From Candidatus Omnitrophota bacterium (GTDB taxonomy: Bacteria > Omnitrophota > Gorgyraeia > JABMRN01 > RBG-13-46-9): a stretch of DNA of 64,000 bases. This document shows positions 1 through 64,000 of the stretch, one piece after another; positions within the stretch are counted from its first letter, which is position 1, and the number at the start of each line of letters is the position of its first letter. The notes beneath the pieces were generated by a model. That model worked only from the letters and a program-made list of their open reading frames with translations, made no database searches and was not told the origin of the DNA. Location: contig JABMQJ010000016.1 in assembly GCA_013203315.1 (NCBI GenBank), positions 4,956 through 68,955 on the forward strand, given 5' to 3'. The translations under genes were made by a program, and so were the position numbers.

Positions 1-1786
1 GGAAGACTACACGACGGGCAAGAGATATAACCTGCCAATGATAATGCCCGTAAATTCTAAAGGTATTTTTGATAATACATGCGGCGAGTTTAGCGGGCTT
101 GATGTACTTCGGGCAAACCCGAAAATCCTGGAGCGGCTTAAAAAAGAAAATGCGCTTCTTCTATCCGAAGATATCGCACATTCGTATCCTCACTGCTGGA
201 GATGCAAAAGACCCATTATCTTCAGGGCAACCGAGCAGTATTTTGTTAAGATCGACCACAAGGAATTAAGAAAAAAAATGTTGGGCGCGATAAAAAGCAA
301 GGTCAAGTGGTACCCCGAAACGGGCCAGACAAGGATATCTGCGATGGTTGAAAATCGCCCGGATTGGTGCCTTTCGAGGCAGCGATACTGGGGTGTCCCC
401 ATAACGGCGTTCAAATGCAAAAAATGTGACGAGATTTTATTAGACCACAAGGTTATTGAGCATGTAGCGGGGATTATCGAAAAGGAAGGTTCAGACGCGT
501 GGTTTATAAAAGACGAAAACGCGCTCCTCCCGGAAAAAACATCCTGCAAAAAATGCGGATCCGGTGACTTCGTCAAAGAAAAAGACATCGTAGACGTGTG
601 GTTCGAGTCGGGCGTAAGCCACCAGGCCGTTTTAAAGCCTGACCCGGCGCTCACTTTTCCATGCGGCCTTTATCTTGAAGGCTCAGACCAGCACAGGGGC
701 TGGTTCCAATCGTCGCTTATTACTTCACAGGCGTTGGTAGGAGGGCCTCCGTATGAAAGCGTTTTTACTCATGGCTTTGTTGTTGACGGAGTTGGGAAGA
801 AGATGTCAAAGAGCCTGGGCAACGTTATTTCCCCGCAGGACCTCATGAAAAAATACGGAGCCGACATACTGCGCCTTTGGGTCGCTTCGAGTAACTATCA
901 CGATGATGTAAGGCTCTCTGATGAGATTTTAAAAAGGCTTGCTGACGCGTATAGAAAGATTAGGAATACGTTCAGATACCTGCTTGGTAACCTATACGAT
1001 TTTGATCCAAAAAAAGATTCAGTTGACCCGAAAGATATGACGGAGCCGGACAGGTGGATACTTTCGAAGCTTTCCGGAATAATCGAAGAGGCGGAAAAAG
1101 ATTATTCAGAGTATAAATTTTATAAAATATTCCGCGCCGCGTATAATTTCTGTGTTTATGAAATTTCGAGTGTTTATCTGGACATTTTGAAAGATAGACT
1201 GTATACTTTCAAAAAAGATGCCCTGGAACGCAGGTCATGCCAGACCGTTCTTTACGAAACCCTGATCGCCCTTTTAAAAATACTGGCCCCGATTTTATCC
1301 TTTACAACCGAAGAGGCCTATCAGGTTCTTTTCCCGGGCGGTTGCGAATCCATACACCTGGAGTCATGGCATTGGACCGATCAAGCTCTTAAGAAATGGA
1401 AAAACGTTGCCCTTGATAAAAAGTGGACACGTCTTCTGGAGCTTCGCGAAGAAGTTTTAAAAGCCCTGGAGGCAAAAAGAATTTCGAATGAAATCCATAG
1501 CTCTCTCGAGGCCAAAATTGTTTTATATACCGATAAGGCTGAATTTAGAAAATTTCTGGAAGAAAATATCCGGGATTTACCGGCGTTTTTTATAACTTCG
1601 CAGGTTGAAATCGCGGACACTCAGGGTGAAGCGAAAAAAGTAGACACGCTACCCCTTTGGATATCCGTGCAAAAGGCTTCCGGAGAAAAATGCAACAGGT
1701 GTTGGAACTATAGTCAAAGTGTAGGTAGCGATAAAGAATTTAAAGACATCTGCCAAAGATGCTTGAACGTTATACGTGAAAGTTGA
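1..1786 (+). CDS. ileS: Isoleucyl-tRNA synthetase, C-terminal portion (gene continues upstream of window)
   Basis: Class I aaRS KMSKS motif ('KMSKSLGNVISP'), IleRS-type anticodon-binding region, C-terminal Zn-binding Cys pairs (CWRCKRP.., CKKCGSG, CNRCWNY..CQRC). ORF open to position 1. Confidence 0.9.
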   Translation, partial: EDYTTGKRYNLPMIMPVNSKGIFDNTCGEFSGLDVLRANPKILERLKKENALLLSEDIAHSYPHCWRCKRPIIFRATEQYFVKIDHKELRKKMLGAIKSKVKWYPETGQTRISAMVENRPDWCLSRQRYWGVPITAFKCKKCDEILLDHKVIEHVAGIIEKEGSDAWFIKDENALLPEKTSCKKCGSGDFVKEKDIVDVWFESGVSHQAVLKPDPALTFPCGLYLEGSDQHRGWFQSSLITSQALVGGPPYESVFTHGFVVDGVGKKMSKSLGNVISPQDLMKKYGADILRLWVASSNYHDDVRLSDEILKRLADAYRKIRNTFRYLLGNLYDFDPKKDSVDPKDMTEPDRWILSKLSGIIEEAEKDYSEYKFYKIFRAAYNFCVYEISSVYLDILKDRLYTFKKDALERRSCQTVLYETLIALLKILAPILSFTTEEAYQVLFPGGCESIHLESWHWTDQALKKWKNVALDKKWTRLLELREEVLKALEAKRISNEIHSSLEAKIVLYTDKAEFRKFLEENIRDLPAFFITSQVEIADTQGEAKKVDTLPLWISVQKASGEKCNRCWNYSQSVGSDKEFKDICQRCLNVIRES

Positions 1787-1807
1787 TTTTAAAAGGAGGA
1801 ACTAATC

Positions 1808-2257
1808 ATGTCAAAGAAAATCCAACGGAGAAAAGTGAGAAAAATTTCAAACAAAAAAAAGGCCGCCAGACCAAAAGGCAAACTTAGCAAAAAAGAAACC
1901 GCGATTTTTAAGAAGTCGCTGATAAAAGAAAAAATAAATTTATTACAGGGAATGAATCATCTTACAAACGAGACGTTGAAGAAATCGCAGCGCGAAGCCT
2001 CCGGCGATCTGTCCGGTTACGCATATCACATGGCGGATATGGCAAGCGATGTTTACGAAAGGGATCTTCTTTTAAAGCTTGCTTCGGGCGAAAGGGAGAT
2101 TTTGTTTAAGATCGACGAGGCCCTCCAGCGCATAAAAGAAGGCAAGTATGGCTCTTGCGCTTCCTGTGACAAAAAAATCTCCAAAACGCGGCTCCGGGCT
2201 ATACCGCAAACTGTTCACTGCCGCGAATGCCAGGAAAAAGAAGAAAAAAAGCAATAA
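1808..2257 (+). CDS. DksA/TraR-family C4 zinc-finger protein with Lys-rich N-terminal extension
   Basis: C-terminal 'CASCDKKISKTRLRAIPQTVHCRECQ' (Cx2C-x17-Cx2C DksA/TraR finger) preceded by a coiled-coil-like region. RBS 'aaggagga' upstream. Sits between ileS and lspA. Confidence 0.7.
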   Translation: MSKKIQRRKVRKISNKKKAARPKGKLSKKETAIFKKSLIKEKINLLQGMNHLTNETLKKSQREASGDLSGYAYHMADMASDVYERDLLLKLASGEREILFKIDEALQRIKEGKYGSCASCDKKISKTRLRAIPQTVHCRECQEKEEKKQ

Positions 2258-2264
2258 TCAAAAA

Positions 2265-2702
2265 GTGAATATATTTACCGGCTCCCTGGTTATTTTCATT
2301 TTTTTCCTGGATCAAATCTCAAAATTTTTCATTTTGCGAAACTTGGACATAAATGAATCTGTCCCCGTAATACGAAACATCTTTCACGTAACCCTCGTTC
2401 AAAATACCGGAGCGGCTTTCGGCATTTTTAAAAGCGGAACACTATTTTTTATCGTCATATCAATCTTGGCGGTAGGCGCCATTACCGTACATCTTATAAG
2501 AAAACCCAATATATCTTTATTATTGAATGCGGCGCTTTCGCTAATATTGGGCGGGGTGCTTGGGAATCTGTTTGACAGGGTGCGTCTCGGATACGTAATC
2601 GATTTTTTGGATTTCAGGGTGTGGCCCGTATTTAACGTGGCAGATTCGGCAATAACAATCGGTGTAATTTTATTAATCTTTAGTCTATTACGAAAGAAGT
2701 GA
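2265..2702 (+). CDS. lspA: Lipoprotein signal peptidase II
   Basis: Four predicted TM segments, conserved LspA motifs ('NTGAAFG', 'FNVADSAI'). GTG start at 2265 chosen because the ATG at 2148 would overlap the upstream gene by 110 nt; start is uncertain. Confidence 0.8.
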   Translation: MNIFTGSLVIFIFFLDQISKFFILRNLDINESVPVIRNIFHVTLVQNTGAAFGIFKSGTLFFIVISILAVGAITVHLIRKPNISLLLNAALSLILGGVLGNLFDRVRLGYVIDFLDFRVWPVFNVADSAITIGVILLIFSLLRKK

Positions 2703-3450: not shown

Positions 3451-4362
3451 ATGGAAGAGCATAAGCTGCGCGTTGAAATGTCGAATGCCGGAAAACGCAT
3501 TGATAAATTTCTCGTAGATGCGTTTGAAGGAAAGTTTTCACGGTCTTTTATAAAAAAGCTAATTGATGCCGAAAACGTTCTTGTTGACGGAAAGCATCCA
3601 AATGCCCACTATAAGGTTTCGGCAGAAGAAATCATAAAAGTAACTATTCCGGAACCGAAGGCCCTACAGCTAAAACCGGAAAACATCCCGCTTGATATAG
3701 CATATGAGGATAAGGATCTCCTTGTTGTCAATAAGGCGGCGGGAATTTCAGTGCATCCGGCGGGAATGAATTTTACGGGGACACTGGTTAATGCGCTTCT
3801 TTATCACTGCAAGGATCTTTCCGGGATAGGAGGGGTGGCAAGGCCCGGGATTGTCCATCGTCTTGACAAGGAAACCTCGGGACTTTTGGTTGTTGCAAAA
3901 AACGACACTGCGCATGTAAACCTTTCAGGACAGTTTAGAAACCGGACCGTAAAAAGAAAATATATTGCGCTTGTTAAAGGCGCGGTGCAGCTGGATAACG
4001 GCAGGATCGACCTCCCCATTGCCCGGCGCAAAAAAGACATAACCAAGATGGGGATTTCGTTCGCTGACGAAAAAAAGAAAAACGCCATAACGAATTACAA
4101 GGTTATTAAAAGATTTAAAGATTTTACAGTGCTAGAGCTTTCGCTTGAAACCGGGAGAACGCACCAGATAAGAGTGCATGCCGCGCACATGGGACATCCG
4201 GTTATCGGCGATAAACTTTACGGGTCAAAAAGGGGAGCCATGACCCATGCGTTACACGCAAAGACGCTTGGCTTTTTTCATCCTGTAACAAAAAAATTTA
4301 TGGAATTTAATAGTGACATTCCGCGTGAAATGCAGGAGTTGATTAAGCGCGGGCAACTGTGA
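3451..4362 (+). CDS. rluD: RluA-family 23S rRNA pseudouridine synthase (RluD-like) with N-terminal S4 domain
   Basis: S4-like N-terminus, catalytic motif 'HRLDKETSGLLVVAKN', C-terminal 'GRTHQIRVHAAHMGHPVIGDKLYG'. Confidence 0.85.
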   Translation: MEEHKLRVEMSNAGKRIDKFLVDAFEGKFSRSFIKKLIDAENVLVDGKHPNAHYKVSAEEIIKVTIPEPKALQLKPENIPLDIAYEDKDLLVVNKAAGISVHPAGMNFTGTLVNALLYHCKDLSGIGGVARPGIVHRLDKETSGLLVVAKNDTAHVNLSGQFRNRTVKRKYIALVKGAVQLDNGRIDLPIARRKKDITKMGISFADEKKKNAITNYKVIKRFKDFTVLELSLETGRTHQIRVHAAHMGHPVIGDKLYGSKRGAMTHALHAKTLGFFHPVTKKFMEFNSDIPREMQELIKRGQL

Positions 4363-26874: not shown

Positions 26875-29034
26875 ATGAAAAGAAAAAAGCATTATAAAAG
26901 CGGCGTGACGCTGATCGAGCTTATGATGTCGGTTCTCCTGGGCACCATTTTGCTAGGCATTGTCTTAGGCGCATGGTATTTTACCTATAGAAACTGGGCG
27001 CTTGATAGAATAAGGACAAAGAACAGGGTTGAGCTTCAAATCGCCGTGGAACGGATCAAGAGCGAGCTCAGGCTTTCAAGCACTACATACCTAAGCCTTC
27101 ACCCCGCAGGTGAAACCGAATACACTGCCATAAGTTTTCCGATGGCAGATTCTGACGCGAACGGCTTTTTTAGCTTAGACGGCGATGGGCACATCGACTG
27201 GGATAAGAGCGTCATATACCACGTTTATGATAATTCGTCGACAGGATTCACGGAGCTTAGGAAAACAGAGTTTACCAGCAACCACGACGTATTAGTTGTC
27301 GATGCCCAAAGAGAGACACAGCTTGCCAATGCCGTGGCAAACGGAGACGGTTCGAGTGGACCCAACTCAGCTAATGCAACTACTGAAACTATAGTCGAAA
27401 AACTCACAAGTTTTATCATAAACCCGCAGGCGCAGGAATTTGACGGGTACAGCCCTACTGCCAAAAAAAGCGACAACGTGACGTTCGGTAGCGTCAGGCT
27501 TACATCGGGAAATCATGATTTCAGGTTCGAGGTAACCGGGAAAAATACCAATAATACCGATCCGTCGGGATATAAATTTGGCATAGACACGCTTTCTATT
27601 TCACCGAGTGGCTGCAAGCAGGAAATGGAGGTTTACACGCCTCAAGCATCAAGTGGGGATACTAGCGCAAAGATCGGCCCCAATTTACTCTGGAGCGGAA
27701 ATAATTTTCAGCGATACAGTGCTGACGCAGTCGGCGACTATGCCACCTTTAGGCTATATTACGACAGCTGGCTTGAATCCAATTTTGATAATTCTGTAAG
27801 AGAGAATACGATTTTGACAGGTGACGATCTATCCGTGCAATTACCGGATCTCGATTCGGGAGAAGAAGTTACGTGGACCGCAGATGTTGAAGCGGGTAGT
27901 GTAAACGGCGATGCGGTAAAAGCGGATTTTCCTTTGACACTCGCCGGAATAACTATAAGAAATGTTATTTCCTCCGTCAACATCGATTCAGGCGGAAATG
28001 CATTTAGAGTCCAGTTTGACTCGCATTCTACTTCTCCCCTGACAATTGATGCCGCTTATATTGACGAAAGGGATTCCGGCGAAAATTGCGTGAATCCTCC
28101 GGTAACCACAACCCCCGGTGAAACAAGGATACAACTTTATTTTACCGACGCTTTGGATAATATTCTGCCGGGAATAACAATTCCCGCCGGTGAGAGCGCA
28201 TATTCGAATTGGGCAATTTTTCCGATTGATTCTTCAAAAAATTACTTTGTGACCTTCTCTGTATCAGGGGCCTCATTTGCAAGCCACTGGGCCGGGACCG
28301 AGCCAACTGAAACAAATTCATATTTGATGGGTGGCGATTATGCTGCACAGGCTGTGTGGTCTGATGTGACCCATTATCTCGTACATGAGTCTTTACCTCC
28401 CTTCGCCGACGAAAGGTACACTTCATCCGCGAATATTTACGCGCAGGCTTCGCTTGAGGTTTGGTCACAAAGCGGTAGTGTTACAACGCAGATTTATGAT
28501 ACAAAAATAGCGAACCCAGTTTATAGGCCAATGAATTATTCGAGCTTTGGATCTGTTTCGGTCTACGGTCGTTCAAGTGATGATTCCCTTATGAGCGGGG
28601 CATCGGCGTGGACTGCCGGATCTGTGACCGGCACAGGAAGATATGCGCAGGCCAAAGCAGATCTTTCTGTAATACCGTATTGGACATGCATCGATCATTC
28701 GGCGGCTATAAATGTCCCAGATTCAAGCTATAAAAATTCCGGCATGATAACCTGCTCAGGGGCGGGATGTGGAAAGTTTCTTATTCCGACTCAGGGCGTT
28801 AATGCGCCCTGGGTCGATAATATTTTAGTCACCTGGCCGGGAGAGACAACGATGTGCGACATAAGCGGTTATTTTGCGCAAGATTCAGACTACGGAATTA
28901 TAAAACTTCTTGTAGATGGAAATGAGCTGATAAAGGGTATGGAGTTTAATGTAACGGTTTACGAAGATTTTCAAGGTGCGGTCTATACAACAAGCCAACA
29001 AACTGAGGTCGAACCGAGGAATACCGGAAAATGA
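26875..29034 (+). CDS. Giant (719 aa) minor pilin / pseudopilin, Ser/Thr/Gly/Asp-rich, probable pilus-tip adhesin
   Basis: 'HYKSG|VTLIELMMSVLLGTILLGIVL' (G-1, E+5) prepilin N-terminus followed by ~680 aa of beta-rich, S/T/G/N/D-rich sequence; 4-nt overlap (ATGA) with the next gene. Confidence 0.6.
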   Translation: MKRKKHYKSGVTLIELMMSVLLGTILLGIVLGAWYFTYRNWALDRIRTKNRVELQIAVERIKSELRLSSTTYLSLHPAGETEYTAISFPMADSDANGFFSLDGDGHIDWDKSVIYHVYDNSSTGFTELRKTEFTSNHDVLVVDAQRETQLANAVANGDGSSGPNSANATTETIVEKLTSFIINPQAQEFDGYSPTAKKSDNVTFGSVRLTSGNHDFRFEVTGKNTNNTDPSGYKFGIDTLSISPSGCKQEMEVYTPQASSGDTSAKIGPNLLWSGNNFQRYSADAVGDYATFRLYYDSWLESNFDNSVRENTILTGDDLSVQLPDLDSGEEVTWTADVEAGSVNGDAVKADFPLTLAGITIRNVISSVNIDSGGNAFRVQFDSHSTSPLTIDAAYIDERDSGENCVNPPVTTTPGETRIQLYFTDALDNILPGITIPAGESAYSNWAIFPIDSSKNYFVTFSVSGASFASHWAGTEPTETNSYLMGGDYAAQAVWSDVTHYLVHESLPPFADERYTSSANIYAQASLEVWSQSGSVTTQIYDTKIANPVYRPMNYSSFGSVSVYGRSSDDSLMSGASAWTAGSVTGTGRYAQAKADLSVIPYWTCIDHSAAINVPDSSYKNSGMITCSGAGCGKFLIPTQGVNAPWVDNILVTWPGETTMCDISGYFAQDSDYGIIKLLVDGNELIKGMEFNVTVYEDFQGAVYTTSQQTEVEPRNTGK

Positions 29035-37198: not shown

Positions 37199-39091
37199 AT
37201 GTTCGAAGCGCTGAAGATTTATAAGGGACAGGCTATTGACCTTGAGGAGACGTATCGCACCCTGACCGAGTTCGGGTATAAGAGGGTAGAAGCGATAACC
37301 GAAGAGGGCGACTTTAGCGCAAAGGGTGAAAACATTTTCGTATTTCCCGCCACTTTTGACTATCCCATTCGGATCGAATTGTTCCACAACGAAGTAGAAG
37401 GCATAAAAACCATCGACCCTGTATTGTACAAGGCCATATCGGACCATGAGATGGTTATTGTTCTGCCGATTAAGGGAATGCTCCGTAAGCGGAAATACAG
37501 GCCGCGTAAAATCCGCAAAGAAATCGACCCCATCGACACGTTTGTCGATATCGAGCCGTCTGATTACGTAGTCCACGTTGATTACGGTATTGGAAAATAC
37601 TTAGGCATTGAACGAATTAAGACAAAAACCGGCGCCGAAGACCATCTGGTCCTTGAGTACAAAGACGGCGACAAGTTATATGTGCCTTTTGAGGATCTGA
37701 ATAAAATCCAAAAATATATTGCCTTTGCCAAAAGGGCGCCGAAACTTTATAAAATCGGAAGCCGCAAATGGTCGCAGGCCAAGGAGCGTGCCCGTAAAAG
37801 CGTTGCGAGGGTAGCGTTTGAAATTCTGGAAATTCAGGCCAAAAGAAATATGCTGAACGGGTTTTCGTATTCCGGGGATACCGACTGGCAAGGCCTTCTG
37901 GAAGAATCGTTCCCACATAAAGAAACGAAAGACCAGATTAGGGCTACCGAGGAATTAAAAAAAGACATGGAGAGAAAAAAGCCCATGGATCGTCTCCTGT
38001 GCGGTGATGTGGGATACGGTAAAACCGAAGTGGCTTTGAGAGCCGCATTCAAGGCTGTTATGGACAATAAGCAGGTGGCAATTCTCGTTCCTACTACGAT
38101 TTTAGCCGAGCAACACTATATAACTTTCAAAGGGCGCATGAAGGAGTTTCCCGTAAATATCGCGATGCTAAGCAGATTTAGAACAAAGGGCGAGCAAGAT
38201 GTTGTTGTTGAGGACCTGCGCTGTGGCAGGGTAGATATTGTGGTCGGAACGCATAGGCTGCTTTCAAAAGACGTAAGCTTTGGCGACTTGGGGCTTGTTA
38301 TAATCGATGAGGAGCAGCGCTTCGGCGTAAAACACAAAGAAGAACTAAAGAGGCTTCGGCTTGTTGTCGATGTTCTAACACTTACCGCTACACCCATTCC
38401 GCGCACGTTATATCTTGCGCTCATGGGCGGAAGAGACATATCCGTTATCGATACGCCGCCGCTTGAAAGGCACCCCATCCAGACGCACATAACAGAGTTT
38501 GACGAGCAACTCGTAAAAAAATCCATAAAGCGTGAAATAGCAAGAAAGGGCCAAGTATATTTTATTCACAATAGGGTCCAGGGCATAGAAAAAGTATGCC
38601 AGCGTTTGAGGGGGATGCTGCCGGATATACGCATTACAATCGCACACGGCCAGATGAAAGAAAAAGAGCTGGAAAAAACAATGGGCGAGTTCATAAAAGG
38701 AAATATCGATGTTCTTGTCTGCACTACAATTATAGAATCCGGGATAGATATACCGAACGCAAATACAATTCTTATTAATAACGCTGACAGATTTGGGCTT
38801 GCAGATCTATATCAATTGCGCGGTAGGGTCGGGAGGTTCACAAGGCGCGCATTTTGTTACCTCATAGTAAACCATATTCAAACCCTGACGGGCGATGTTC
38901 AAAGGCGGCTTAATACAATAACGAAATATCAAGAGCTGGGGTCCGGCTTCAAAATCGCTATGCAGGACCTGGAGATCCGGGGTGCCGGCAATCTCCTGGG
39001 CACCCAGCAGCACGGCTTCATTGACAGTGTCGGCTTCGACCTTTACTGCCGCCTCCTCCGCGACGCCATCAGCGCGGTCAAAGCAAAGTAA
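37199..39091 (+). CDS. mfd: Transcription-repair coupling factor Mfd, short form (630 aa) lacking the N-terminal UvrA-binding module and the D7 region
   Basis: UvrB-homology remnant 'IFVFPATFDYPIRIELFHNEVEGIKTID', CarD/TRCF RNAP-interaction domain 'DYVVHVDYGIGKYLGIERIKT', Mfd-specific helicase motif I 'PMDRLLCGDVGYGKTEVALRAAF', DEEQ box 'LVIIDEEQRFG', motif VI 'QLRGRVGR'. Protein ends shortly after the TRG region. Confidence 0.8.
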   Translation: MFEALKIYKGQAIDLEETYRTLTEFGYKRVEAITEEGDFSAKGENIFVFPATFDYPIRIELFHNEVEGIKTIDPVLYKAISDHEMVIVLPIKGMLRKRKYRPRKIRKEIDPIDTFVDIEPSDYVVHVDYGIGKYLGIERIKTKTGAEDHLVLEYKDGDKLYVPFEDLNKIQKYIAFAKRAPKLYKIGSRKWSQAKERARKSVARVAFEILEIQAKRNMLNGFSYSGDTDWQGLLEESFPHKETKDQIRATEELKKDMERKKPMDRLLCGDVGYGKTEVALRAAFKAVMDNKQVAILVPTTILAEQHYITFKGRMKEFPVNIAMLSRFRTKGEQDVVVEDLRCGRVDIVVGTHRLLSKDVSFGDLGLVIIDEEQRFGVKHKEELKRLRLVVDVLTLTATPIPRTLYLALMGGRDISVIDTPPLERHPIQTHITEFDEQLVKKSIKREIARKGQVYFIHNRVQGIEKVCQRLRGMLPDIRITIAHGQMKEKELEKTMGEFIKGNIDVLVCTTIIESGIDIPNANTILINNADRFGLADLYQLRGRVGRFTRRAFCYLIVNHIQTLTGDVQRRLNTITKYQELGSGFKIAMQDLEIRGAGNLLGTQQHGFIDSVGFDLYCRLLRDAISAVKAK

Positions 39092-39170
39092 ATCTTTCTC
39101 TTTATAAGAAGCAAGAGACGTAATTCCTTTCCTCGCAACCAGAAGCTTGTGCGGCATGCTATATTCTAAC

Positions 39171-39328
39171 GAATGAGAGAGTATGGGCGTGAGGCTTTTT
39201 TGTGCGGTCTTGTAGGAGACCCTTTCTTTCCGCAATAATAAATATAAACATACACCTTACTACAATTTTTTGAAGAAGAAAGGGCTCCGTCGTTAAGTAC
39301 CAAGCCGCACGCCAATACTCTCTCATTC
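39171..39328. repeat. ~158-bp palindromic intergenic element, copy A (long imperfect hairpin with conserved core)
   Basis: Outer arms 'gaatgagagagtatgggcgtgaggc' (39171-39195) and 'gccgcacgccaatactctctcattc' (39304-39328) are reverse complements (2 mismatches). Inner arms 'ggagaccctttctttcc' / 'gaagaagaaagggctcc'. Core 'aataataaata-aaca--c-ttactacaattttttgaagaagaaag' is shared with copy B at 63448-63604. Confidence 0.7.
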
Positions 39329-39365
39329 CGTTAGTTTTTATCTCAATCTTTTAAGGCATTTAGGC

Positions 39366-39394
39366 TTGCATATAAGAGAGTATTATGATATATT
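39366..39394 (+). promoter_or_regulatory. Putative promoter upstream of the first PPIase gene (TTGCAT-17-TATATT), possibly producing a leaderless mRNA
   Basis: TTGCAT 39366-39371, 17-nt spacer, TATATT 39389-39394. The ATG at 39402 lies 7 nt downstream of the -10 with no obvious SD. Confidence 0.3.
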
Positions 39395-39401
39395 TAGTGT
39401 C

Positions 39402-40280
39402 ATGAAAAGAAACATAATTTCGCTGATATTCGCTGTCTATCTTGTAGCGCTTTTTGCGGGCGGGTGTGGTAGCCGCGGAGACAATGAGGTGTTGGCGCGT
39501 ATTGACAATAAACGCACTATTACTGTCGGCGATTTCAATAATAGAATCAAGCAGCTACCCGAGCGTTACCAGGAAGTTATAAATCAAAACAAGAAGGCTT
39601 TTTTGGATGAGCTTATCGTAGACGCTGTATTGCATAAAGAAGCCTTAAAGCAAAAAGTGTACGAAAACGAAGAAGTTAAGGAAATGATCGGTGAGGCCAC
39701 GAAAAAGATTTTAATTGCGCGCTTATTAAAAGAGGAAGTCGGCGATAAAGTTACGGTAACCGAAGAAGAGGTTGAGACTTACTACGGCGAGAACAGGGAG
39801 CAGTTTACAGCGCCTGAGTTGCTACGCGCTTCTCATATTCTTGTAAAAACCGAGAAGGAAGCCAAGGGCATTTTGGCAGAACTGGCAAACGGCAGAAATT
39901 TTGAAGACCTGGCAAAGGCGCGTTCAATAGATTCTTCGGCTAAAAACGGTGGCGATATCGGTTCTTTCACCAGGCAGCAGCTGGTGCCGGAATTCGAAGA
40001 GGCCAGTTTTAGCTTGCAGGTCGGTGAAATATCAGGTATCGTGAAGACAAAATTCGGATACCATATCATCAAGCTTACAGAGCGAAAAGAGCCACGCGTA
40101 AAAGAACTTGCCGAGGTACACGCTGCAATCGAACAATCTTTCAAAAGGCATAAAGGCAAGCAGCGTTTTACCGAATTCGTAAAAGACCTTAAAGAGAAAT
40201 CCAAAATAACCATCAATACAGACCTCCTAGAAAACATATCCCAGGAAGAAGAATCCCCTAAAGAAAAACCCGAAGAATAA
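39402..40280 (+). CDS. Parvulin-type peptidyl-prolyl isomerase lipoprotein (PrsA/SurA-like)
   Basis: Signal peptide with lipobox-like 'LFAGGCG', SurA_N-like chaperone region, parvulin domain 'RASHILVKTEKEAKGILAEL...GGDIGSFTRQQLVPEFEEASFSL..GEISGIVKTKFGYHIIKL'. Start at the ATG 39402 (the track's 39366 start is the promoter region). Confidence 0.75.
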   Translation: MKRNIISLIFAVYLVALFAGGCGSRGDNEVLARIDNKRTITVGDFNNRIKQLPERYQEVINQNKKAFLDELIVDAVLHKEALKQKVYENEEVKEMIGEATKKILIARLLKEEVGDKVTVTEEEVETYYGENREQFTAPELLRASHILVKTEKEAKGILAELANGRNFEDLAKARSIDSSAKNGGDIGSFTRQQLVPEFEEASFSLQVGEISGIVKTKFGYHIIKLTERKEPRVKELAEVHAAIEQSFKRHKGKQRFTEFVKDLKEKSKITINTDLLENISQEEESPKEKPEE

Positions 40281-62529: not shown

Positions 62530-63453
62530 ATGCTTAAAAGTAAAGCTTTCCCCGCCGCTATTGTAATTCCTGCACTTCTATTTCTTGCAGGTTGCTCCGA
62601 AATTCCGGTCGGCACAAAGAATACTATTCTCATGGATACCTTTGTAAGCGTCGAAATCAAAGACTCCTTAGACAAAAATTTAAAAAATCAAATTCTCAAT
62701 AAAACCATAAGCCGCATGAGAAGCCTAACGAAGGGATTTAATTACTTCGGAGATGAAAGCGAGCTTGCGCGGATAAACAGCTTAAAGCCAGGCGAGGAAC
62801 TCTTGCTTTCGGACGAGATGTTTGCAGTGCTTAAAACATCTCGGGATATCTTTGCTAAGACCGGGGGTGCTTTTGACGTTGCGATGGGGAAGGGTGACTG
62901 GAAGCTAGACGAAAAAAAGCATGCAATCGTAATTGAAGAAAGCGGCGTTAAGATAAATTTAGGCGGTATAGCAAAAGGCTTTATCGTAGATGAAGGGATC
63001 AAGGTACTAAAAGATGCCCTCGTTCGCAACGCAATCATAAATGCCGGCGGTGACATGTACTGCATGGGTCAAGGAACGGATGCAAAAGGGTGGAAGATAG
63101 GTATCAGAGACCCGGTAAATACAAAGAAAGTTATAGCCTCATTTAACGTTCGCGACAGGGGCGTAGCTACTTCCGGTGGATATGAAAGATTCACGAAATC
63201 CGAAAACGGAAAGTATTCCCATATAATCGACCCTAAAACAGGCGAACCCATAAAAATTATTACAAGAAGCGTCACTGTCGTAGCCGACGATTGCGCAACA
63301 GCCGACGCCCTCGCAACCGCGCTATATGTCCTTGGTCCCAAAAAGGGCCTCGCCCTTATCGAAATCCTCAAGAAAACTGAATGCGTCATCATCGACACCG
63401 ACGGCAAATTCTACGTCTCCTCCGGTCTCACAGACCTTATTTCTACGGAATGA
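62530..63453 (+). CDS. apbE: ApbE-family FAD:protein FMN transferase lipoprotein
   Basis: Lipobox 'LLFLAGCSE', ApbE motifs 'GGAFDVAMGKG', 'LGGIAKGFIVDEG', 'GVATSGGYERF'. Confidence 0.8.
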   Translation: MLKSKAFPAAIVIPALLFLAGCSEIPVGTKNTILMDTFVSVEIKDSLDKNLKNQILNKTISRMRSLTKGFNYFGDESELARINSLKPGEELLLSDEMFAVLKTSRDIFAKTGGAFDVAMGKGDWKLDEKKHAIVIEESGVKINLGGIAKGFIVDEGIKVLKDALVRNAIINAGGDMYCMGQGTDAKGWKIGIRDPVNTKKVIASFNVRDRGVATSGGYERFTKSENGKYSHIIDPKTGEPIKIITRSVTVVADDCATADALATALYVLGPKKGLALIEILKKTECVIIDTDGKFYVSSGLTDLISTE

Positions 63454-63604
63454 GAGGGCATTGGTGTGAGGCCATTTGTACAATCCTATAGGAGATCCTT
63501 TCTTTCCAAAATAATAAATAAATACATTCAGCTTACTACAATTTTTTGAAGAAGAAAGAGTTCCGTCGTTTATTGCCAGGCCTCACACCAATGCCCTCTC
63601 ATTC
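63448..63604. repeat. ~157-bp palindromic intergenic element, copy B (overlaps the apbE stop codon)
   Basis: Outer arms 'gaatgagagggcattggtgtgaggcc' (63448-63473) and 'ggcctcacaccaatgccctctcattc' (63579-63604) are perfect 26-bp reverse complements. Inner arms 'ggagatcctttctttcc' / 'gaagaagaaagagttcc'. Core shared with copy A. Confidence 0.7.
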
Positions 63605-63629
63605 CGATAAGAACGCACAAGCTTCTGGC

Positions 63630-63658
63630 TTGACAAAAAGCGGCTGATACTATATAGT
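63630..63658 (+). promoter_or_regulatory. Putative sigma70 promoter for the tRNA(CAT)-tilS unit (TTGACA-17-TATAGT)
   Basis: TTGACA 63630-63635, 17-nt spacer, TATAGT 63653-63658, ~27 nt upstream of the tRNA 5' end. Confidence 0.45.
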
Positions 63659-63684: not shown

Positions 63685-63758
63685 GGCGGGGTAGCTCAGT
63701 TGGTTAGAGCAGTCGGCTCATACCCGGCATGTCGAGAGTTCGAGTCTCTCCCCCGCTA
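63685..63758 (+). tRNA. tRNA with CAU anticodon (elongator Met or lysidine-modified Ile2; not initiator-like)
   Basis: Cloverleaf read by eye: acceptor GGCGGGG/CCCCGCT, D-arm 'TAGCTCAGTTGGTTAGAGC', anticodon stem GTCGG/CCGGC with loop 'CTCATAC' (anticodon CAT), T-arm GAGAG-TTCGAGT-CTCTC, discriminator A; no encoded CCA. Lacks the three consecutive G-C pairs of initiator tRNAs. Confidence 0.8.
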
Positions 63759-63776
63759 CTACTCGAAAAGCCCAAC

Positions 63777-64000
63777 ATGAACCTAACTTCCCAAATACTT
63801 AAAACTGTTGACCGTTACAAGATGCTCGAGAGAGGGGACAGGGTCTTGGTCGGCGTTTCAGGCGGGTCTGATTCGGTTTTTCTCGTATACGCGCTAAAGA
63901 GACTAGAAGATGTGCTGGGCATCGAGTTATTTATCGCGCACATGGATCACGGCCTAAGAGGTAAGGAATCCGGTCGGGATGCGCAGTTTGTAAAAAACTT
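63777..64000 (+). CDS. tilS: tRNA(Ile)-lysidine synthetase, N-terminal portion (continues beyond window)
   Basis: PP-loop 'RVLVGVSGGSDSVFLVYAL' (SGGxDS) characteristic of TilS/MesJ N-type ATP pyrophosphatases; ORF open at window end. Confidence 0.8.
   Translation, partial: MNLTSQILKTVDRYKMLERGDRVLVGVSGGSDSVFLVYALKRLEDVLGIELFIAHMDHGLRGKESGRDAQFVKN

Follow-up and report, generated by a model that had tools for sequence, protein, structure and literature searches.

The 64,000-nt stretch of DNA studied here—the window, from contig JABMQJ010000016.1 of a Candidatus Omnitrophota bacterium—carries, at the 3′ end of its apbE gene for an FAD:protein FMN transferase, a long palindromic repeat (copy B) that is most probably a non-coding hairpin repeat of about 165 bp, of the kind represented by MITEs (miniature inverted-repeat transposable elements) and the Correia and ERIC repeats, scattered over the intergenic regions of one narrow Candidatus Omnitrophota clade. 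The element, which judging from its sequence appears to form a previously undescribed family of MITE-like palindromic repeats of that clade, behaves as ordinary selfish DNA and not as a purpose-built terminator. A second copy of the same family (copy A) lies in the window between an mfd-like gene and a gene for a peptidyl-prolyl isomerase (PPIase). All window coordinates, collected in Table 1, refer to the forward strand, and the related sequences are cited by their L numbers.

Arms and fold of copy B

The two arms of copy B, 28 nt each, are 100% complementary, with 105 nt between them. A chance palindrome was ruled out by the arm shuffles and the fold z-score: the 27-mer of the arm has only two sites in the window, both of them in copy B, as compared with 0.00 expected (100 shuffles), and the region of the copy (173 nt), folded as a single strand, reaches −70.9 kcal/mol versus −32.6 ± 3.8 in shuffles (z = −10.1). 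The repeat at 63448-63604 described in an earlier, sequence-only reading of this DNA is real, corresponding to the GAATGAG...CTCATTC part of the full repeat (63446-63606), and the other factual points of that reading proved correct as well. From the outside inwards, the copy consists of the 28-bp outer stem, a short variable segment, the inner stem and an A/T-rich loop. The inner stem—helix 3 of the fold—is paired in 100% of six copies and is nearly invariant, as is the core CTTACTACAATTTTTTGAAGAAGAAAG, almost unchanging across all copies. The element (161-169 bp) has no coding capacity beyond short chance open reading frames (ORFs) crossing it.

Origin of the apbE stop codon

The apbE ORF ends with the codons ...TCT ACG GAA TGA, and both the GAA (63448-63450) and the TGA (63451-63453) lie within the left arm, in agreement with the sequence-only reading, which had assigned the last codons and the stop of the gene to the element. 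The inverted repeat of copy B opens at the CG of the ACG codon, and its outermost left-arm bases, (A)CGGAATGA, code for the Thr-Glu-stop of ApbE in the window. The comparison of orthologous apbE 3′ ends, proposed in the same reading as a check, was carried out and shows the TE-stop to be element-derived. At the window junction, ATT TCT^ACGGAATGAgagggc / ACGGAATGA (the caret marking the junction), the tail of ApbE reads ...LISTE-stop. For 11 kb, as far as the element, the metagenome-assembled genome (MAG) of a sister species (L012) matches the window with ~91.6% identity, and there the similarity ends; its junction is ATT AGA TAA AT^GGAATGAGAGGG / GGAATGAG and the tail is ...LIR-stop, the gene's own TAA preceding the arm by 2 nt. 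In a third lineage (L016, ~79% identical), having the junction ATT AGA^ACGGAATGAgaggg / ACGGAATGA, the arm abuts the AGA codon and the tail is ...LIRTE-stop. The C-terminal tails of the more distant ApbE orthologues are variable and unrelated.

Similar arrangements are seen at other genes. The gene for the HflX GTPase of the MAG ends ...KKELTE-stop on the TGA of the arm of another element copy, and the family-9 glycosyltransferase (GT9) gene of the MAG has the junction TAA^CGGAATGAG, i.e. its stop directly abuts the arm, TAA^CGGAATGAG junctions being present at three copies other than the apbE one. Wherever an arm is found next to a long ORF (five of five cases), it either starts 0-2 nt past the stop or contains it. 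The capping of gene ends by the element is thus not specific for apbE, the same being seen at hflX in the relative. Since the sister species keeps its own TAA, the unrelated hflX also ends with TE-stop in the arm and the distant tails differ, the Thr-Glu-stop of ApbE in the window is read from the end of the repeat. As to its history, either the element would have inserted at or into the original TAA of apbE, or the three nucleotides of this TAA would have been lost at a later time, bringing the ORF into fusion with the arm. The fused state is common to the window and the outgroup L016, the closer MAG keeping the TAA, so that at least one extra event—a parallel loss or a conversion—is needed.

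Spread of the family

The degenerate pattern of the arms, a strict one, was scanned against one genome per species (185,579 species) and was found on five contigs, all belonging to the MAG Candidatus Omnitrophota BS750m-G80 (GCA_016782425.1), in addition to one chance match; the Dyadobacter match L009 has only the pattern in common. The 21-mer of the core, scanned against metagenome contigs, revealed one further full copy (L011) and one chance match, L010, located within a TPR-like coding sequence. A profile built from six full copies, all having arms of 27-28 nt, recovers no window copies besides A and B, and about 12 more copies or fragments in ~120 kb of related DNA, with matches in L004-L008, L011, L012 (three places), L016, L018 and L021; the MAG GCA_016782425.1 contains at least nine copies or fragments on seven contigs. 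It should be pointed out that the metagenome contigs with an identical ApbE all break off within copy B (positions 63560, 63516 and 63475 of the window), and that at least eight contig ends, including several starts and ends of the MAG contigs, fall within the element or the insertion sequence (IS) hosted by it; assembly breaks of this sort are the usual behaviour at multi-copy repeats.

With regard to relatives, L025 has no element separating apbE from the tRNA promoter, and L019 has none between mfd and PPIase. The element is small, non-coding, multi-copy, bounded by terminal inverted repeats and variable in its presence across relatives, all of these being features of MITEs. Nothing similar to it was found in annotated plasmid and phage collections, and Rfam matched only tRNA, both in the window (gathering threshold) and in the L012 region (E ≤ 0.1). 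No paper was found in a literature search joining Omnitrophota with MITEs.

Two further sequences were observed in addition. A short (~108 bp) variant of the repeat, the right arm of which is good and the left one degenerate (ACGAAGTGAGAGAGGGG), is situated downstream of a tRNA-Thr/Tyr/Gly cluster in the MAG (L012:20385-20493). In the window, a lone 17-mer GCTTACTACAATTTTTT (26840-26856), identical to the element core and to most of the IS target, precedes by ~20 nt a prepilin-like gene whose ATG is at 26877. Nothing else of the element is found near it, and a match of this length is not expected by chance in 64 kb.

Insertion sequence targeting the core

In relatives, the core may host an IS. 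The one present in the MAG is 1412 bp long and encodes a protein of 355 residues with the domains DEDD_Tnp_IS110 (PF01548) and Transposase_20 (PF02371). In every copy seen (L012, L014, L018, L007, L013 and L021) it occupies the same site, CTTACTAC-AA-IS-AA-TTTTTTGAAG, the IS of L021 coming from another assembly and encoding a protein 91% identical. The 64-kb window is free of this IS and the targets in both of its copies are intact. The ends of the IS measure ~95 nt (left) and ~250 nt (right), with AA at both junctions, and its subterminal inverted repeats are AAGTGTCAAGCTTC / GAAGCTTGACACTT. Subterminal inverted repeats, a short left and a long right end, and a bridge RNA encoded in the right end are the marks of the IS1111 group (Durrant et al., PMC11208160). 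By the membership criteria taken from that work, the IS of the relatives appears to belong to the IS1111 group of the IS110 family.

Relatives of this IS, with proteins 81% and 67% identical, were found in other targets, namely CACTGATC-AA-TTTTTTGTATG and ACAGCTG-AA-TGTGTTGTG. The right ends of four ISs exhibit, in the same place, the arrangement TTGAGACGCCTCGA-g1-AGAGC...GCTCG-g2-AAGAGACTCAAGAG, in which g1 is the reverse complement of each IS's own right target and g2 corresponds to its own left target plus the core, both at 7-8 of 8 positions. These matches hold across three different targets. In the consensus fold, g1 and g2 occupy an internal loop between stems supported by three compensatory pairs. 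It thus appears that the layout of g1 and g2 is that of the target-binding loop of a bridge RNA, tuned to the core of the repeat, the RNA guidance being a prediction from the sequence. A link between the IS and the outer motif described below was also considered, both containing GAAGCTTG, but one shared 8-mer was judged to be within chance.

Gene order and promoters at the two sites

The right arm of copy B ends, as the sequence-only reading had it, 25 bp before the TTGACA-17-TATAGT promoter of a tRNA(CAT) gene, TTGACA starting 25 nt past position 63604. The sequence of this promoter, CTTGACAAAAAGCGGC(T/G)GATACTATATAGTTATTAAACCGTAATA, is common to the window and L012, the DNA immediately upstream of it being different. 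In L025 (GCA_016782495.1), the ApbE of which is 54% identical, apbE ends with its own TGA and is followed by a spacer of ~45 nt, TTGACA-17-TATAGT, the tRNA(CAT) gene and tilS, with no element in between.

Concerning copy A, its arms (39171-39197 and 39302-39328) are 93% complementary and its fold has z = −8.5. The same reading had placed it between mfd and a TTGCAT-17-TATATT promoter, and the coordinates agree: the mfd-like gene with its stop at 39089-39091 lies upstream of the copy (39166-39334) and the promoter (39366-39394) downstream. In L019, with a PPIase 63% identical, the mfd-PPIase spacer of 155 nt contains TTGCAT-17-TAATAT and no element.

Because L025 and L019 have the same layout without the element, the order of gene, promoter and gene is older than the repeat at both sites. 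The tRNA(CAT)-tilS promoter is consequently an ancestral neighbour of the repeat, independent of it and not its partner, as is the promoter next to copy A, and the repeat took up the only non-essential DNA that was available.

A few observations can be made on the neighbouring genes themselves. The product of the mfd-like gene (37199-39091), 630 residues long, has the UvrB-interaction, CarD/TRCF-RID and helicase domains; the TRCF C-terminal domain was not detected in it, and its L019 orthologue is similarly short (637 residues). The −10-like hexamer of the PPIase gene (TATATT; TAATAT in L019) ends 7 nt before the ATG in three lineages (window 39389-39404, L018:~236-251 and L019:~3988-4003), and this short distance suggests a leaderless PPIase mRNA. 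Also in three lineages (window 63685-63759, L012:12852-12928 and L025:3556-3632), the tRNA(CAT) gene immediately precedes tilS, for which reason the tRNA may be tRNA-Ile2, the substrate of TilS, and not the tRNA-Met of the ARAGORN label.

Table 1 Features of the window and of the related sequences
Feature	Position	Strand	Remarks
apbE (FAD:protein FMN transferase)	62530..63453	+	307 aa, PF02424
Copy B, type-1 palindromic repeat, whole element	63446..63606	+	161 bp; 'plus' core orientation; profile match 63443-63609, E = 5.8e-54
Copy B, left arm CGGAATGAGAGGGCATTGGTGTGAGGCC	63446..63473	+	28 nt; holds apbE GAA (E) and TGA stop
Copy B, right arm	63579..63606	+	28 nt; exact reverse complement of left arm
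Inner stem, 5′ strand GGAGATCCTTTCTTTCC	63491..63507	+	Pairs with 63546-63564 (GAAGAAGAAAGAGyTCC); from folds
Core CTTACTACAATTTTTTGAAGAAGAAAG	63532..63558	+	27 nt; same in copies A and B
IS target CTTACTAC-AA-TTTTTTGAAG	63532-63551	+	Uninterrupted in copy B; insertion target of the putative IS110/IS1111-type IS in relatives
Outer motif ATAAGAACGCACAAGCTTCTGG	63607..63628	-	22 nt filling the gap from right arm to -35 box
Promoter-like TTGACA-17-TATAGT of tRNA(CAT)-tilS	63630..63658	+	11/12 positions match; not part of the element
tRNA, anticodon CAT	63685..63759	+	Followed by tilS
tilS-type ORF	ATG at 63777	+	Runs off the window end
Type-2 solo arm	39100..39132	+	Directly past the mfd-like stop, left of copy A; the window's only type-2 sequence
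Outer motif CCAGAAGCTTGTGCGGCATGCTATATTCTAA	39139..39169	+	Left of copy A
Copy A, same family as copy B	39166..39334	+	Same orientation as copy B; ~82% identical
Putative IS110/IS1111-type IS, 1.41 kb	L012:10985-12398; L018:1-107; L007:1-25; L021:~990-2397		In relatives
Type-2 sites in relatives	L008:7083-7296; L004:1016-1213; L005:7267-7301		

Mosaics with other repeats

The element is accompanied by an outer motif, the reverse complement of which includes the 15-mer CCAGAAGCTTGTGCG, present in the window at 39139-39153 (+) and 63614-63628 (−). Relative to the orientation of the core, the motif is found on opposite sides of the two copies—left of copy A and, inverted, right of copy B—and on both flanks of the metagenome copy L011, where it forms an outer, weaker inverted repeat. 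There may thus be a longer palindromic form of the element, or the element may tend to sit within another palindrome or a preferred palindromic target.

Besides the family of copies A and B (type 1), there is a second palindromic family (type 2) of ~200 bp with 27-nt arms TTATAAGAAGCAAGAGAyGyAATTCC, represented by full copies in the MAG and by solo arms. A composite consisting of type 2, a linker of ~70 nt ending with GGAAGGAGCCCCTTTTAT, and type 1 recurs in L004, L008 and L021. The apbE-tRNA spacer of the MAG contains, in this order, the split type-1 element, a palindrome of ~150 bp, the right ~50 nt of a plus type-1 copy and a type-2 arm fragment. The remnant of the type-1 copy shares with the right half of copy B an unusual GTTATTG...CCAAGCC segment, which suggests that the right arm of copy B is the orthologous one and that the single element of the window derives from a state with two elements, through arm-to-arm recombination or inversion of the interior. 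Mosaics and nesting with other families are usual for such repeats.

The ~150-bp palindrome (L012:12583-12735), with the arms GTATAAAGCCTACGGAGCGTGTGTTACCCAGG / CCTGGGGAATACACGCTCCGTAGGCTTTAT, has one copy in the DNA examined. In L016 (10340-10424), the A/T loop of the type-1 copy at apbE is broken by another sequence, which starts with a perfect 16-bp hairpin, CTTGGACCGTGTCCAT...ATGGACACGGTCCAAG, and may be the end of another mobile element; the contig stops there.

Weighing of the explanations

If copy B is a dispersed MITE-like repeat, the family would have spread by transposition in trans, with the enzyme supplied from elsewhere, and the hairpin, as RNA or DNA, would owe its persistence to selection or to template-switch (quasipalindrome) correction. 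An effect on the apbE mRNA, such as protection by a 3′ stem-loop or cleavage by RNase III, would then be a by-product and not the cause of the element's presence, and the conserved loop and core would serve, in the related genomes, as a programmed landing site of the putative IS1111-type bridge-RNA IS. Several points weigh against this explanation. Among the six full copies there is no consistent target-site duplication: the flanks are TA-rich (TAA, TGA, CTA...), and L005 has TAA on both flanks, the other copies being without a consistent direct repeat. No closely related empty site was found, L025 and L019 being distant relatives, and both sites are occupied at 91.6% identity; since both window copies are orthologous with copies of the sister species, there is no record of recent movement. 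The arm scan of the 185,579 species revealed no autonomous IS whose terminal repeats match—a weak negative, the pattern being strict and the set containing no complete genome of the clade—the matches in the MAG being short elements only. As for arms 0.7-2.5 kb apart, as expected for an autonomous partner, the only pair encloses the IS110 element, the own ends of which are unrelated to the arms. Finally, seven stem pairs vary on both sides among the six full copies and yet stay paired, as compared with 2.4 ± 1.1 in shuffles (7 being reached in 0 of 500) and with 0-1 for slid registers. This can be illustrated by GAGAGAGTAT/ATACTCTCTC in copy A vs GAGAGGGCAT/ATGCCCTCTC in copy B, the latter being paired at 28 of 28 positions although it departs from the consensus of the family at 4-5 sites, in both arms alike. 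Such paired changes, together with the near-invariant inner stem and core, could reflect selection for a structure-dependent function, six sequences being few. Template-switch correction of quasipalindromes in replication is an established mutational mechanism, and the same pattern of pairing is also expected from it, or from conversion by other copies. Because the arms change in pairs, the formation of the hairpin is maintained, be it by selection or by such a mechanism.

The paired changes, which preserve both stems, would also suit a selected device of the 3′ untranslated region, i.e. a terminator, stabiliser or insulator ending the transcription of apbE and mfd and shielding the promoters downstream. 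So would the very stable folds (z = −10.1 and −8.5 for copies B and A, respectively), the location of every gene-abutting copy at a 3′ end and the TTTTTAT found directly past the extended stem of copy A. Such a device is, however, unlikely. The sequence ATAAGAACGC downstream of the stem of copy B contains no T-run, most other copies are also without one—copy A alone having its TTTTTAT—and no terminator-like site was found at the element in the scan. Lacking the compact G+C-rich hairpin with an immediate U-tract, the element is not an intrinsic terminator. The orientation of the core next to apbE is opposite to that of the window in both L012 and L016, so both orientations occur at the same site, and there is no signal of strand-specific RNA selection, the minus-strand RNA being slightly more stable in six of six copies. 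Both copies have orthologues in the MAG that are split in the core by the 1412-bp IS, which parts the arms by 1.4 kb, with flanking genes and promoters intact, and relatives without the element keep the promoters and gene order. Moreover, a Rho gene is located on the same contig, so that termination need not rely on the hairpin. The role shared by the two copies in the sequence-only reading—termination upstream and insulation of the promoter downstream—finds no support in view of the missing U-tract in copy B, the varying orientation, the IS-split orthologues and the element-free relative, and a dedicated terminator or insulator role is unsupported. An incidental effect of the hairpin on the 3′ end of the apbE mRNA, through exonuclease protection or cleavage by RNase III as with the Correia repeats (PMC2229807), is plausible by analogy.

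A dispersed repeat of another kind, the repetitive extragenic palindromic (REP) sequence or its REPIN form, would owe its spread to a REP-associated tyrosine transposase (RAYT), a Y1 enzyme of the IS200/IS605-like type, and not to a DDE transposase that acts on the inverted repeats at the ends. REPs are short, being palindromic units of 20-40 nt or their doublets, and the loops of REPINs are their variable part. The arms of 28 nt, the unit of ~165 bp and the conserved loop do not fit this scheme, and no RAYT gene was seen in the ~190 kb of loci examined, where no systematic RAYT search was made. An origin of this type is thus very unlikely, even if the element is a palindromic intergenic repeat forming mosaics, with arms evolving in concert, and is, as REPs are (PMC11208160), a target of the IS110 family. 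The conserved core and inner stem, the covariation and a TACAAT −10-like hexamer within the core could also point to a structured non-coding RNA gene or a cis-regulatory RNA with its own function. That is extremely unlikely, because there is no Rfam match and no good −35/−10 pair inside the element, both orientations relative to the neighbouring genes occur, and copies are truncated, nested or split by the IS without consequence. Returning to the MITE-like repeat, it is rather unlikely that its hairpin and core are themselves selected, either as a co-evolved multi-copy landing pad for an IS1111-type bridge-RNA recombinase that needs the sequence as well as a DNA hairpin context, as reported for ISPpu10, or through a preference of the element for insertion at stop codons. 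If the latter were true, the element would systematically provide genes with a new end, made up of its own TGA and a 3′ stem of 28 bp. Under either version the family would offer a natural model, be it of structure-gated, RNA-guided insertion or of transposition targeted to stop codons.

Relation to known systems and significance

The closest kinds of repeats are Correia/NEMIS, ERIC/YPAL and bcr1, with no sequence in common. Bacterial MITEs of 100-200 bp are known to form long stem-loops, to fuse with ORFs and to have effects through RNase III (PMC2229807), and the Correia hairpins of Neisseria are RNase III substrates that alter the expression of neighbouring genes (PMC2229807, PMC2649163). 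The Correia/NEMIS repeats (CREE) resemble the Omnitrophota element in size (~100-160 bp), in terminal inverted repeats of ~24-28 nt, in a conserved A/T-rich centre, in their intergenic or 3′-of-gene sites and in the long RNA hairpins. The Omnitrophota element, however, has no sequence similarity to them and no TA duplication shown, and it creates no promoter at its ends, the adjacent promoters being ancestral. The enterobacterial ERIC/IRU, the YPAL of Yersinia and bcr1 are palindromes, imperfect and 127-168 bp long, that are transcribed together with genes upstream and in some cases form in-frame fusions with the ends of ORFs (PMC2229807, PMC3184786), and compensatory base-pair changes have been described for bcr1 of the Bacillus cereus group (PMC3184786). 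Size, palindromy and fusion to ORF ends are thus shared with the present element and, in the case of bcr1, the compensatory changes too; phylum and sequence are different, the Omnitrophota element gives two codons and a stop, and only genome fragments were examined. Intrinsic terminators and SPRITE-type repeats likewise place a stable hairpin just downstream of a stop codon, but copy B, with a 28-bp stem, an inner stem and a loop of ~35 nt, is far larger than intrinsic terminators and has no U-tract.

Concerning the IS of the relatives, its closest analogues are IS621, inserted in REPs (PMC11208160), and ISPpu10, also of the IS110 family, which in addition needs a hairpin in the target DNA (preprint 10.64898/2026.03.19.712850). 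In both cases, a dispersed palindromic repeat of the REP/BIME type is a multi-copy 'safe' target of an RNA-guided IS110-family recombinase. The Omnitrophota target differs from these in being the loop and core of a MITE-like element of ~165 bp and not a short REP, with the RNA guidance deduced from sequence only.

Although the current understanding of these systems is unchanged by the present findings, the repeat accounts for the TE-stop of ApbE, and of HflX in the relative, as well as for the assembly breaks at this spot, and its comparison among relatives shows the tRNA(CAT)-tilS promoter to be independent of it. A MITE-like repeat system with at least two palindromic families and their mosaics is thus documented in the uncultivated phylum Omnitrophota, together with a natural example of a putative IS1111-type element, the predicted bridge-RNA guides of which are tuned to the loop of the repeat, extending the REP-targeting theme of IS621 and ISPpu10.

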